Shown here: positions 12,934 to 64,000 of the stretch, in pieces
Position numbering within the stretch: position 1 is the stretch's first letter
How the letters are laid out: each line of letters begins with the position of its first letter
Origin: Escherichia phage ECO103 4-12-1
DNA length: 64,000 nucleotides
Sequence record: OR844650
Strand: one strand, 5' to 3'
Translations under genes and position numbers: made by a program
The notes under the pieces: generated by a model
The model's database searches: none
What the model saw: only the letters and a program-made list of their open reading frames with translations
What the model was told of the DNA's origin: nothing

Positions 12934-13124
12934 TAACATTTTATTCGTAATACCCCTTTATCGAAGTCGCTAAGGTTACCCGCCCTTTAGCCCCCTACGC
13001 ATTTTGCCATAGTCCAATCCCTTTTATTTCAAAAAAGTCAAGGGATTACCTATGCATTTTTTTAACGCATAATTTTAAAAACGCCTTGACTTTTTTCTGA
13101 ATCAGTACTAGATCCCTTTACGCA

Positions 13125-13334
13125 TTAATCCTTCGTTACGCTAACGATTATCTGTGTATCCCCGTAGTCCTGCCATACTTCCACGCCATCGGTCGCCCTG
13201 GTTAGTCGTGCTGTCATCTGCTTAATGGTCTTAGGCTTTAGTGGAACCTGTTGCAGTACTGTACGCATAGCATCATTGACGTTATCATGTACGCCTGCAA
13301 TAGTACCTAGAACGCTGTATACTGTATAGAACAT
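13125..13334 (-). CDS. hypothetical protein
   Basis: ORF track; AGGAGGG RBS. Confidence 0.55.
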   Translation of the reverse strand: MFYTVYSVLGTIAGVHDNVNDAMRTVLQQVPLKPKTIKQMTARLTRATDGVEVWQDYGDTQIIVSVTKD

Positions 13335-13402
13335 ATGTATGCCCTCCTGATATAGTTAAGGCCGCTACAAGGCGGCCTATGATGTTTGGTGATGTGTAAC
13401 GC

Positions 13403-13804
13403 TTACAGTCCTAAGATAGTGCGTGCTTCGTTACGTTCCGTACACAGCTGCATGATGTGAGCAAGTAAGTCCTTGCTAATGTATCCGGTGTTCATAGCTT
13501 CACGAATAGATACATCATAAGCACCGAACCCCGTGCGAACGATACGCACATCATTCAGGTTAGTATTATAGATACCGCCGAGATCAACGGCTTCGAATAC
13601 TACATCAACAGAATATTCATTGTTGCCATCGTGGAAGTTTTCCAGTGCAATAGTATTGGATACCGCCCAACGTTTGCAGTTTCCAATGATGCGGCACTGT
13701 TCCGGTTGGATAGTACCATTACTTACAGCGTACTCCAGTGCATCTTTACCGAAAGTCCGAGCCAGTACTAAAACGTCAGCGAAGGAATTGATTGAGAAGG
13801 TCAT
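13403..13804 (-). CDS. hypothetical protein
   Basis: ORF track 13403-13837; start moved to ATG after hairpin and TAAGGAG RBS. Confidence 0.6.
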   Translation of the reverse strand: MTFSINSFADVLVLARTFGKDALEYAVSNGTIQPEQCRIIGNCKRWAVSNTIALENFHDGNNEYSVDVVFEAVDLGGIYNTNLNDVRIVRTGFGAYDVSIREAMNTGYISKDLLAHIMQLCTERNEARTILGL

Positions 13805-13858
13805 GATAAAACTCCTTAATTTAGGAGGGAGAACCATTTCCCCCTCTCTATGTAAAAC

Positions 13859-13886
13859 ATTATACTTGATTCTAAGTACTATGCAA
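13859..13886 (-). promoter_or_regulatory. early-type promoter (TTGCAT-16-TATAAT) followed by 5' hairpin
   Basis: minus-strand read; hairpin GGGAGAACCATTTCCCCCTC at ~13824-13845 then RBS. Confidence 0.55.
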
Positions 13887-13893
13887 GTACTTT

Positions 13894-14226
13894 TTACATT
13901 TTAATACCTGGATTCAGATAGCGGTGAGAACCATATTCTGGATCGGTTTCGGTCCAGTACTGTAAATCGATAGTACCTTTCGCGTTAATCTTGTCTACCA
14001 GCTTATTCATCTTAGCGTATACTACGTCAGCATCGATGCGTTTAAAGCCAGTAGCTTTAGTGAAGTAGTAGTGATTTGCTTCACTATCATTAAGGATATA
14101 CCGAGCACCGTTTGCAGTCTGTGCGATAATGATTGAGTATTCTACTTCCCGATCCAGACCGTCGATGAATACAGATGAAACATTGGTACGGATGAAAGCT
14201 TTAACGATAGCGATTGAAGTACTCAT
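13894..14226 (-). CDS. hypothetical protein
   Basis: ORF track; promoter-hairpin-RBS cassette upstream. Confidence 0.6.
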   Translation of the reverse strand: MSTSIAIVKAFIRTNVSSVFIDGLDREVEYSIIIAQTANGARYILNDSEANHYYFTKATGFKRIDADVVYAKMNKLVDKINAKGTIDLQYWTETDPEYGSHRYLNPGIKM

Positions 14227-61201: not shown

Positions 61202-61230
61202 ATAGTACTACACGATGGTAGTACTGTCAA
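61202..61230 (-). promoter_or_regulatory. sigma70-like promoter (TTGACA-17-TACTAT) for the membrane-protein operon
   Basis: minus-strand read upstream of 60831-61172. Confidence 0.5.
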
Positions 61231-61239
61231 TACATGTAA

Positions 61240-62013
61240 TTAAATTTTCTCAAGGAACATATTCTCTGCCATTGACTCCCAATCGTATGGGAATTTATTA
61301 TACAGACCAGCGATCAGTACTGGCATACGCAGTGATGGACTACGCAGACGTTCTTCGTTGTTCAGCATCCAGTTCAGAATTGCTCTACATCCATTCTTGT
61401 TAACACCATTGTTTTCAAGGATGTTTGTTTTGTTCATGATGTTCTCAATGTGAATCATCACTTCTTCGTTGGTGAACAGTTGTAAGTCAACAAAGATGCT
61501 ACGAGTGATCAGTGCATCAATATGTGGTGCTAAACCACTTTTACCTTTAGCCAGTTGTGACAGGTTTTTGTTCGTCAGGAAGATAACCTTACCACGGAAT
61601 TCAAACTGCTTAGGGATACCCTGCTGTTCCAGGTACTTAGCAGAAGTCGCGTAAGAAACTACACGCTTTTCTGACGTATCCAACACAGCTTTAAGCAAAT
61701 CAATATTAGTCTCATCAGAGAAGATATCAACATCATCAAGTAACAGTACTGATGCGGCATGACGTGAACGATACAGTGCTTCGTACAGACCCAAAGTAGT
61801 TACTTTACCACTGATTTTCTTGTAGTCGATTTCAAAGTTATCATCAGCTTTCCGTAAACGCTGGTCCACGTTGTATGTCTTACCAACACCACCTTTACCT
61901 GATACGATCAGAGAGTTGATAGAGTTAGCTTGTGTATCCAGAAGACATTCAAGTGCTGCCATCATGGAGTTGAAGTTCTTTTCGATTTGGATTGCTTTCT
62001 CTGTACGGTTCAT
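61240..62013 (-). CDS. P-loop NTPase (AAA+-like ATPase)
   Basis: Walker A 'GKGGVGKT', Walker B 'VLLLDDVD', sensor-1-like 'VIFLTNKN'. Confidence 0.65.
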   Translation of the reverse strand: MNRTEKAIQIEKNFNSMMAALECLLDTQANSINSLIVSGKGGVGKTYNVDQRLRKADDNFEIDYKKISGKVTTLGLYEALYRSRHAASVLLLDDVDIFSDETNIDLLKAVLDTSEKRVVSYATSAKYLEQQGIPKQFEFRGKVIFLTNKNLSQLAKGKSGLAPHIDALITRSIFVDLQLFTNEEVMIHIENIMNKTNILENNGVNKNGCRAILNWMLNNEERLRSPSLRMPVLIAGLYNKFPYDWESMAENMFLEKI

Positions 62014-62103
62014 TTCGTTACCCTCTCTAGTTGATGAAATAATTATAGCAAACGAATGGCATATACGTCAAGTACTAAATACATTTTTATTAAGGGGAGA
62101 GAT

Positions 62104-63081
62104 ATGGCAGGTAAAATATCACATGAAGAGGCTAAAGTAATAGTTGATAGTATATGTGAAAATATAAATTTCAAGCTTAATAGCTTTGAATATATAGGTT
62201 CATTGAAAACAATTTTAGATTTAACATGCCCCAATGGACACGCATGTAACACTACCACTTATGCAAAGTTTGTTAGTAGAAAGGGTTTAAAATGTCGAGA
62301 ATGTTTAGGAATAAAAAAGAAATCACAAGAAGATGCGGAAATGGAATTAATAGAAAGATGCAAAGAAAGTGGTTATTCCTATGACAATTTCAAATATATT
62401 GGTGTTGATAAAACTAAATTAAACTTAACTTGCAACAAAGGTCATCAATGGGATACAACAACATATATAAGTTTTGTTAACGATAAAACTGGATGTCCAT
62501 TTTGTGCAGGGAATGTAAAACACACACAATCTTATTGTGAGAAAGTTGTGAATGAGTTGTGTTCTCTATATGGATATTCATGTGAACCATTTGAATACAT
62601 TGGTGTGGATGAAACGTTTTTATCACTAACATGCAATAAAGGTCACACATGGTCTAGTACAGATTTTTATCATTTTACCAAGAAAGGAAACAAATGTCCA
62701 GAATGTCAATCCAACGAATCATACAAATTGAAAGAAATTATTGATCCAATGCTACCTGAATTTGAAAAAGAAAAACGTTTTGATGATTGTAGGTTAGTTC
62801 GCCCATTACCGTTTGATAGATATGTTCCAAGTTTGAATCTACTTATAGAGTATGATGGTGAGCAACATTTTAAATACCGAGAATATATGCATGGTGATAT
62901 AGAATCATACAATAAAATGAAAGAAAGAGATGAAATTAAAACAAAATACGCAATAGATAATGGTTTTAATTTTATCAGGATTGCGTATTTTGAAGATTGT
63001 AATTATACATTACTCGATATTATTAAACAAATTATTGGTTCTTATAATCAATTAATCAAGATTCATGGTGTATATCTTTAA
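62104..63081 (+). CDS. endonuclease: three zinc-ribbon repeats + C-terminal DUF559/Vsr-like PD-(D/E)xK domain
   Basis: 3x 'F.YIG..KT.L.LTC.KGH.W.TT.Y..F' with Cys pairs; C-term 'LLIEYDGEQHF...ERDEIK...GFNFIRI'; start corrected from ORF track 62056. Confidence 0.6.
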   Translation: MAGKISHEEAKVIVDSICENINFKLNSFEYIGSLKTILDLTCPNGHACNTTTYAKFVSRKGLKCRECLGIKKKSQEDAEMELIERCKESGYSYDNFKYIGVDKTKLNLTCNKGHQWDTTTYISFVNDKTGCPFCAGNVKHTQSYCEKVVNELCSLYGYSCEPFEYIGVDETFLSLTCNKGHTWSSTDFYHFTKKGNKCPECQSNESYKLKEIIDPMLPEFEKEKRFDDCRLVRPLPFDRYVPSLNLLIEYDGEQHFKYREYMHGDIESYNKMKERDEIKTKYAIDNGFNFIRIAYFEDCNYTLLDIIKQIIGSYNQLIKIHGVYL

Positions 63082-63236
63082 TACACCCATCCTTTTTGTT
63101 TACAATACGCTTCAGCAGCGGTGCGGGTTGAAAAACGTAATCTACCTTCACCGTTTTCAGGTTTAACAACAACACCATTTTTCCATATACTATAACGTTC
63201 ATTTCCAAATGCTTCGTCTCTTATTTCTACTTTCAT
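63078..63236 (-). CDS. hypothetical small protein (52 aa)
   Basis: own translation MKVEIRDEAFGNERYSIWKNGVVVKPENGEG...; AGAGGA RBS; not in ORF track. Confidence 0.4.
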   Translation of the reverse strand: MKVEIRDEAFGNERYSIWKNGVVVKPENGEGRLRFSTRTAAEAYCKQKGWVY

Positions 63237-63254
63237 TGCATATTTCCTCTATTG

Positions 63255-64000
63255 TTATAAAATTACTTCACCAAAAATGCCATTGATATCACGTTCAATG
63301 ATGTATTCACCTTCATGTTCTTCTAAGAACTTTTTAATGGCTTCATTAACTTTAGGACGATGCATGTTGTTGAATGTTTCAGTACATCCGTCACCTTTTT
63401 CATAATAACCACTTTTGTGATGTGGATTACCGCAGAACGCAATTGTATGTGTAATACGTTCTAACTCAGCAGCAAGATGCCCCCCATTGTCTTTGTTAAA
63501 GAAAATGGAAATTTCATTTTTCCAAAATACTTCAACTTGATATATTTTTTTAAAAGAACTATTAATGCGTTTCAAACGCTTATCGTTATCACCTGCAATA
63601 CCGGCTTTATCTGATTCATTATATACATCGTTATGTATATAATAATAAGCTGTTTTGTCTTTTTTAAAACCACTTGGTGTTCTGTTCGGATGTCCTTGTC
63701 CTCGAAGGAATGCATTAGGTGTAATCTGAAACTCACCGAAATCAGGATCAATTATAGTTACTTTTGTATGTGCATTAATATAATTGGCTTTACTATAATC
63801 ATAATTAATATCAGTTCTTTTTTCCTTTCCTTCAGTGACGAATTGTTCTGTGGTTTTCGATTGTGCTTGCATACTGTTTTTAATAGCTCGCATTGGATGT
63901 CCACCACCAAACAAAAAATCCGAAGGTGTAATCTGAAACTCACCGAAATCAGGATCAATTATAGTTACTTTTGTATATGCATTAATATAATTGGCTTTAC
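63255..64000 (-). CDS. hypothetical protein with internal tandem repeat (5' end beyond window)
   Basis: frame stays open upstream of ORF-track start 63914; ~74-nt near-identical repeat at 63721-63795 and 63928-64000. Confidence 0.5.
   Translation of the reverse strand, partial: KANYINAYTKVTIIDPDFGEFQITPSDFLFGGGHPMRAIKNSMQAQSKTTEQFVTEGKEKRTDINYDYSKANYINAHTKVTIIDPDFGEFQITPNAFLRGQGHPNRTPSGFKKDKTAYYYIHNDVYNESDKAGIAGDNDKRLKRINSSFKKIYQVEVFWKNEISIFFNKDNGGHLAAELERITHTIAFCGNPHHKSGYYEKGDGCTETFNNMHRPKVNEAIKKFLEEHEGEYIIERDINGIFGEVIL

Follow-up and report, generated by a model that had tools for sequence, protein, structure and literature searches.

The highly iterated palindrome HIP1 (GCGATCGC) of cyanobacteria is present in genome-wide excess, in coding sequence (in all frames) as well as in non-coding sequence, and is better conserved than its surroundings; selection or a biased repair process has been proposed to account for its abundance, and we know of no established function for it. 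The Bacillus phage SPO1 keeps host-takeover genes in a terminal redundancy behind many strong host-type promoters, and TF1, an HU-type protein recognising hydroxymethyluracil DNA and DNA flexibility, prefers those early promoters and binds the genome elsewhere more weakly. Here we describe the hexamer AGTACT in the window, the full stretch of 64,000 nt analysed from Escherichia phage ECO103 4-12-1 (record OR844650), and in related phages, where it forms two layers. The genome-wide layer most resembles HIP1, both being short exact palindromes in genome-wide excess, found in all frames and in non-coding DNA and conserved above their surroundings; unlike HIP1, the AGTACT word is 6-8 bp long and AT-rich, resides in a virus and not in a cell, occupies in addition fixed positions in early promoters, and persists where most other palindromes have vanished from the genome. 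For the promoter layer the closest parallel is SPO1 and TF1, with a long terminal repeat, host-takeover genes and many host-type promoters in both; however, TF1 does not recognise a short palindrome, and here no HU-like gene or binding protein was identified. The reading that we favour, if tentatively, is that AGTACT is the site of a clade-specific DNA-binding factor, acting as an operator where it sits in early promoters and marking the phage chromosome along its length.

By megablast, the window belongs to the genus Asteriusvirus (121Q/PBECO4-type, RaK2-like jumbo myoviruses of Escherichia coli), its nearest relatives, at 94-98% identity, being EC.P1, WPEC5, fEgEco12 and vB_Ec-M-J. The direct terminal repeat (DTR) of 21,525 bp annotated in the vB_Ec-M-J record (OQ718158) maps by exact 25-mers, once and in reverse orientation, onto the window (Table 1), meaning that the source record has the two repeat copies collapsed to one; window 1-12,972 is unique DNA after the left repeat and 34,248-64,000 is the right end of the unique DNA. 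In fEgEco12, a DTR of 20,993 bp was shown by experiment (PMC13070987). No tRNA genes were found in the window.

Excess, sharpness and conservation of the word

The window contains 268 copies of AGTACT, where dinucleotide-preserving shuffles give 21.3 ± 4.7 (maximum 31), and 64 of its extended form CAGTACTG, where 0.96 ± 0.88 are expected. A first-pass annotation, made from the sequence alone, had reported over-representation between 13,000 and 64,000. The excess is confirmed as real and far beyond chance: that interval holds 251 sites against 16.1 ± 4.0, 40 ± 5.8 and 94 ± 9.6 under Markov models of orders 1, 2 and 3. The interval itself was drawn too narrowly, with 17 more sites lying outside it at 5,672-8,110. 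When sites whose ±15-bp flanks are at least 60% identical are merged, 172 independent contexts remain, so repeated cassettes are not the sole source of the excess. Among the 64 palindromic hexamers of the window, AGTACT stands at 12.3 times expectation and the runner-up at 2.4 times. The complete relative vB_Ec-M-J holds 983 copies in 357 kb of non-redundant sequence against 122 expected (8.1-fold), and 220 copies of CAGTACTG (57-fold). This 8.1-fold excess is confined to the exact hexamer, one-mismatch neighbours ranging from 0.45 to 2.3 times expectation, and the flanks carry information at -1 and +1 only (at -1, C has a frequency of 0.46-0.49 and G of 0.03-0.09, with the mirror image at +1). 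AGTACT thus shares with HIP1 the character of an exact short palindrome in large excess (8- to 12-fold) over composition and Markov models.

The word is not confined to promoters and terminators. Coding sequence holds 165 of the 268 window sites (62%; frame counts 71, 33 and 62), against 54 ± 6 (maximum 72) when synonymous codons are shuffled within each gene, keeping protein and codon usage. The 388 genes of vB_Ec-M-J with at least 100 codons (280 kb) carry 673 sites against 190 ± 13 in codon shuffles, every frame being three- to fourfold enriched and frame 0 (Ser-Thr) the most frequent. As with HIP1, presence in coding sequence in all frames and in non-coding sequence goes beyond codon usage. 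In the 313-kb core of vB_Ec-M-J, coding and intergenic densities are similar (2.47 and 2.86/kb); apart from a slight drop at gene starts and a slight rise past stops there is no marked bias, and gaps are near-exponential (mean 400 bp, coefficient of variation 0.90). That the excess might be functionless, arising from codon and amino-acid usage, from the copying of promoter and terminator cassettes or from the loss of other palindromes, could draw on the paralogy of many promoter and terminator copies and on the prevalence of frame 0. We nevertheless find this scarcely credible: codon shuffles yield only about one third of the observed number in every frame, on which ground codon usage and amino-acid composition were rejected as the cause; the independent contexts are many; the sites are conserved above local background (see below); no other palindrome exceeds 2.4-fold; and the coliphage muut, which purges the same palindromes, purges AGTACT too.

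The same genomes show a broad purge of palindromes. In the window, 24 GC-containing palindromic hexamers have no copy at all, and in the 357 kb of vB_Ec-M-J 23 hexamers of this kind are absent where 11-37 of each would be expected, as is the tetramer GCGC (357 expected, 0 found). RaK2, GAP32 and CBB lack the same set, and so, for the most part, does muut, an rV5-like phage. Retention of about 1,000 copies of one palindrome, when nearly all restriction-type palindromes have been lost, argues for a strong and specific benefit and hence for a molecular reader that has not been described.

Comparison of related genomes places the sites under purifying selection, acting at the level of DNA. The window and vB_Ec-M-J align over 49.6 kb at 92% identity; 87.3% of the sites in this alignment are preserved in full, as opposed to 77.8% of control hexamers taken 10-40 bp from them, and identity per base is 96.1% in sites and 94.0% in flanks; conservation above local background is again a property of HIP1. 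At greater distance, in codon-level alignments of orthologues with 54-60% amino-acid identity, vB_Ec-M-J sites recur at the identical codon position in 9 of 51 cases in RaK2, 18 of 73 in GAP32 and 24 of 88 in CBB, where chance would give 0.1-0.2. Each of these three phages holds about 2.3-2.6 sites per kb though about three quarters of the positions have moved (18-27% identical), and this turnover at constant density indicates that selection acts mainly on density and partly on position. Selection on density rather than position is also a feature of Chi, of the FtsK orienting polar sequences (KOPS) and of DNA-uptake sequences, genomic words in excess that each have a dedicated machine to read them and that likewise discriminate own from other DNA; those words, however, are asymmetric and orientation-dependent, whereas AGTACT is palindromic and has no orientation. 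The same observations would suit a signal that replication, recombination or DNA topology requires on both strands at a regular density, for example a start site of the phage primase or a cleavage site of a type II topoisomerase: the core distribution is near-random, coding and non-coding densities are equal, density is conserved as positions turn over, and genes for a primase, a helicase and topoisomerase II are part of the phage genome. We consider such a signal improbable, as it explains neither the threefold higher density in the terminal repeat, nor the fixed early-promoter positions in three lineages, nor the stretches of 5-8 kb that lack the site altogether.

The excess is a trait of the enterobacterial RaK2-like clade. 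Most other genomes were sampled as pieces of 40-50 kb; in 50 kb each, against 17 expected, RaK2 (Klebsiella) holds 125 copies, GAP32 (Cronobacter) 114, CBB (Pectobacterium) 124 and fENko-Kae01 (Klebsiella aerogenes) 204, and the Pseudomonas relative PA5oct holds 3 against about 17. The co-infecting coliphage muut has 2 in 40 kb (13 expected), both in a gene-plus-promoter cassette common to the Asteriusvirus terminal repeat, and E. coli K-12 has 6 in 100 kb (about 23 expected). AGTACT is some 40 times denser in the phage than in the E. coli DNA sampled, which makes it a mark of phage DNA; and because E. coli and muut treat it like other avoided palindromes, a phage-encoded reader is favoured over a host one. 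The first-pass annotation had proposed a binding site for a phage or host factor, or selection linked to modification or restriction; a binding or modification target is still the most sensible interpretation, but its host half fares poorly. Enrichment is seen only in phages with enterobacterial hosts, the Pseudomonas relative showing none, as would be expected if an enterobacterial protein bound the word. The one site known in E. coli to have this core is that of the nucleoid-occlusion factor SlmA, which is thus a candidate; the site (GTGAGTACTCAC) has AGTACT as its six central bases and is read by a dimer (PMC3020112). Yet SlmA requires G, T, A and G at positions 1, 2, 4 and 5 and a purine at position 3 (PMC3020112), outer positions that are absent or disfavoured in the phage word: no full site occurs among the 983 vB_Ec-M-J copies, half-sites number 13 and 17 where 28 of each are expected, and purines are disfavoured at position 3, above all G (3-9% of sites), so that GAGTACTC has 5 copies against 220 for CAGTACTG. 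SlmA was therefore rejected as the reader on its flanks and, with another coliphage, muut, avoiding the word, a host protein of any kind seems very unlikely.

AGTACT in the early promoters of the terminal repeat

Almost all small DTR genes have a sigma70-type promoter of their own, and it is here that the second layer becomes visible. In 20 promoter-like sites of the window the word starts 27 bp upstream of the first -10 base and overlaps the upstream edge of the -35 element, as in aaAGTACTTGCAA; in 17 it starts 7-8 bp upstream of the -10 element, as in AGTACTgTATAAT. CBB has the same layout (offsets of -27 to -29 in 18 cases and -7 in 13, with both sites in the same promoter in 14 of 38), as does fENko-Kae01 (-27/-28 in 13 and -7/-8 in 9), and distances between paired sites in the DTRs peak at 20-23 bp (31 pairs). 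This arrangement is shared by three lineages while other spacer positions are little conserved. A G separates AGTACT from TATAAT in the window, and a T does so in CBB; what has been conserved is thus the word and not an extended -10 element (TGn), which was rejected on this ground as the reason for the -10-adjacent site. A site overlapping the -35 and/or the -10 element at a fixed position, as an operator for a repressor would be, is thus present in the window, in CBB and in fENko-Kae01. The placement of the word in promoter spacers (TTGACAaagtatatcAGTACTgTATAAT and related forms), which the first-pass annotation had noted, is borne out; its broader statement that the word sits at regulatory positions holds for these 37 promoter-like sites and for terminator stems, but not for the majority of sites, which are coding.

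We hypothesize that hAGTACTd (at its best CAGTACTG) is read by a sequence-specific, probably dimeric, DNA-binding factor that would occur only in RaK2-like jumbo phages of Enterobacterales and most likely be encoded by them. Selection keeps the word at about 2.5/kb over the whole phage chromosome and, in the terminal repeat, where the host-takeover genes lie, the word is part of the sigma70-type early promoters at two fixed positions, the upstream edge of the -35 element and the stretch directly upstream of the -10 element, about two helical turns (~21 bp) apart. A factor bound at both would occlude RNA polymerase; since it would cover surfaces that the polymerase needs, we read the site pair as an operator, and occlusion by a single factor would allow some 50 immediate-early promoters to be switched off or otherwise controlled together. 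We infer the existence of this factor, its encoding by the phage and its role as a repressor from the arrangement of the sites.

Searching IMG/VR with the pattern AGTACTTGnnA-N9-11-AGTACTnTATAAT retrieves RaK2, CBB, GAP32, 121Q and several uncultured contigs of 350-370 kb. The same dual-site pattern is found as single copies in other IMG/VR contigs (11 noted), with a guanine-plus-cytosine content of 0.40-0.44 and only 0.5-1.1 AGTACT per kb, which suggests that the dual-site promoter cassette travels outside the clade. Behind the promoter with three AGTACT sites (Table 1), window 18,412-19,202 holds a ParE-like toxin gene (PF24732) preceded by a 134-amino-acid gene, a pair that is conserved in the CBB terminal repeat. 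Four promoter-like cassettes on the minus strand, gggaTTGACTccggtcagtccctttgcTATTAT, lack AGTACT (window ~14,427, 17,179, 20,446 and 23,920); each is followed by a conserved stretch, gcccacagggtgc, and they may drive small RNA genes.

Terminators, site-free stretches and the ends of the genome

Within the DTR the word reaches 4.4/kb in coding and 11.8/kb in intergenic DNA, and it continues through the open reading frame (ORF)-free region and the adjoining block of small genes (Table 1); the first-pass annotation was right to place it in the ORF-free region, where 12 copies lie. It was equally accurate about terminators: the stems have the form GCCAGTACT...AGTACTGGC followed by a T-run, one lying at 58,362-58,385 and others forming the junction hairpins of the RCC1 array (GCCAGTACTnnnAGTACTGGC and a T-run, at 13 junctions). 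The latter arose as copies during tandem gene duplication and so constitute little independent evidence. The array itself (window 39,426-57,211) comprises 15 tandem RCC1-like genes of about 380 amino acids each; behind every gene come a terminator hairpin, nearly identical from copy to copy, and a stretch that contains TATAAT.

Table 1. AGTACT sites and associated features, in window coordinates
Feature	Position	Strand	Remarks
All AGTACT sites of the window	5,672-62,076	.	n = 268; effective motif hAGTACTd, optimum CAGTACTG
DTR, single collapsed copy	12,973-34,247	-	~55 small genes, most with own sigma70-type promoter; ~144 AGTACT, ~6.7/kb
Promoter, AGTACT abutting -10: TTGACAaagtatatcAGTACTgTATAAT	16,253-16,280	-	site 16,260-16,265; offset -7/-8
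Promoter, 12/12 sigma70 consensus, three AGTACT (19,146; 19,173; 19,197)	19,146-19,202	-	upstream of conserved 134-amino-acid gene, then ParE-like toxin gene
Promoter with both sites, 22 bp apart: cAGTACTaTTGACAtagtttgatAGTACTgaCATAAT	22,482-22,517	-	
Promoter, AGTACT on upstream edge of -35: aaAGTACTTGCAA-N16-TATAAT	32,110-32,142	-	site 32,137-32,142; offset -27
ORF-free region	33,220-34,550	.	spans physical genome end (DTR boundary 34,247); 12 AGTACT, mostly as TCAGTACTGA
Block of ~20 small genes	34,550-39,341	-	just beyond right-hand DTR copy; 39 AGTACT, ~8/kb
Intrinsic terminators between RCC1-like genes, and one at 58,362-58,385	40,601-58,385	+	18 AGTACT in 14 hairpins
AGTACT desert	1-5,671	-	0 sites; tightly packed genes of ~100-190 amino acids
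AGTACT desert	8,111-13,103	-	0 sites; tandem array of diverged ~70-amino-acid paralogues (motif LGTNYQE), directly inside DTR boundary

Two stretches of the window lack the word entirely (Table 1), and the corresponding 13.9 kb of vB_Ec-M-J has no site where about 4.7 would be expected from composition and about 35 from genomic density. No comparable hole was seen in CBB; fENko-Kae01 has two gaps of about 2.5 kb just past its repeat. The existence of such stretches in the genome disfavours a uniform mutational or repair drive as the source of the excess. One of them falls in an array of about 24 diverged paralogues of about 70 amino acids (motif LGTNYQE; window 6,904-12,905), of which 18 consecutive members have no AGTACT and three, at 6,904-8,211, carry 2-4 each. 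The paralogues are only 10-25% identical, so the array must be old, and the family was found only in Asteriusvirus; a foreign origin of the site-free arrays is accordingly not supported.

The ends of the genome carry other repeats. The ORF-free terminal region contains an array of 8-bp period (33,345-33,496; units such as CGTCTAGC, CGTTTAGC and CATCCAGC), and TGATTAC/GTAATCA repeat clusters lie one on either side of the DTR boundary at 34,247 (34,160-34,193 and 34,390-34,423); both may serve in packaging or replication. Two Chi sites form an inverted pair (CCACCAGCttgtGCTGGTGG) at window ~33,650-33,670 (positions 588-607 of vB_Ec-M-J), some 600 bp away from the physical end of the genome. In vB_Ec-M-J, Chi (GCTGGTGG) has 23 copies on one strand and 11 on the opposite one, where 1.2 would be expected on each, with 9 co-oriented copies inside the 21.5-kb terminal repeat, and may protect the linear genome ends against RecBCD. 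Seven genes of the terminal repeat (including window 19,898-20,173) have homologues in muut, a phage of another family, at 31-96% amino-acid identity, one of them together with its promoter, which indicates exchange of early-gene cassettes between phage families.

What might read the word

The main rival to a dedicated binding factor, and one compatible with it, is that AGTACT is the target of a phage DNA-modification enzyme, for example one of two orphan methyltransferases, acting as an epigenetic self-mark or as protection and becoming abundant through selection or biased repair. ScaI recognises this same hexamer with the same sharp exact-word specificity, and a ScaI isoschizomer, Eco255I, is of E. 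coli origin; should the host carry such an enzyme, a phage with some 1,000 sites would have to be protected. The confinement of the excess to the exact hexamer does recall the specificity of restriction and modification enzymes, AGTACT is under-represented in E. coli and in the co-infecting phage, and methyltransferases are at hand: vB_Ec-M-J encodes one of the adenine type (PF05869) and one of 269 amino acids of the C5-cytosine type (PF00145), RaK2 carries the same C5 type, and the PF05869 enzyme is annotated in CBB and GAP32. Protection would nevertheless account for tolerance of the word, not for its eightfold excess or its fixed promoter positions, and phages avoid restriction targets, as muut and the host do here. 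A restriction-modification target would be avoided or matched by a cognate methyltransferase; AGTACT is enriched, M.ScaI is of the N4-cytosine type, which neither annotated methyltransferase is, no cognate nuclease gene is annotated in vB_Ec-M-J, and no cognate enzyme pair was found. Nor is a drive by very-short-patch-type repair supported: its deamination products (AGTATT/AATACT) are not depleted (1.16-fold) and site-free stretches exist, both of which argue against a repair drive acting uniformly. Methylation at CpG has been reported in RaK2 (PMC3622015), but AGTACT contains no CpG. Taken with what speaks for it, this leaves modification an unlikely explanation, if the least unlikely of the alternatives that we weighed.

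The search for a binding protein itself turned up little, and several points weigh against the factor that we favour. Among the candidates examined, none was identified as binding the word. A Pfam scan covering 75 ORFs, from the terminal repeat and the block next to it, gave no recognisable DNA-binding domain, its matches being a DksA/TraR zinc finger, a ParE-like toxin and a kinase; the nine terminal-repeat genes that CBB has as well are all of unknown function; and an HTH_37 regulator of CBB has no homologue in vB_Ec-M-J, whose genes annotated as "transcriptional regulator", "DNA binding protein" and "endonuclease" offered nothing specific. The 134-amino-acid protein behind the three-site promoter has an AlphaFold model of mediocre confidence (predicted local distance difference test score of 69) and no match in fold or sequence. 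The word also behaves in part unlike an operator: restriction and modification enzymes, more than repressors, typically read exact 6-bp words with near-uninformative flanks, distances between sites outside the terminal repeat are flat, giving no sign of cooperative binding there, and the site-free stretches remain unexplained by a factor. Within one genome, moreover, the promoters are paralogous cassettes, so that positional counts within a genome are not independent events. In the literature searched on these phages no expression, binding or methylation data were found, and neither AGTACT nor ScaI is mentioned in the searchable papers on RaK2, CBB, Sharanji, fEgEco12 and fENko-Kae01.

A clade-specific binding factor remains the reading that we prefer, and it would open a further possibility, which we put forward with more reserve still: that the RaK2-like phages possess a self-marking system in which about 1,000 AGTACT sites, read by a dedicated phage factor, would tell phage from host DNA and, through paired sites in some 50 promoters, time the shut-off of the host-takeover genes, and which the clade would have retained throughout its history in the face of the pressure that strips out every other restriction-type palindrome. 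The word and its promoter sites offer direct handles on the control of about 50 immediate-early genes and on the discrimination of phage from host DNA in these jumbo phages, which are poorly understood. The AGTACT excess and the dual-site promoter together provide a signature by which members of the clade and their terminal repeats can be recognised in metagenomes. For phage therapy, a weakness is predicted towards hosts with AGTACT-specific restriction, unless the phage DNA is modified.

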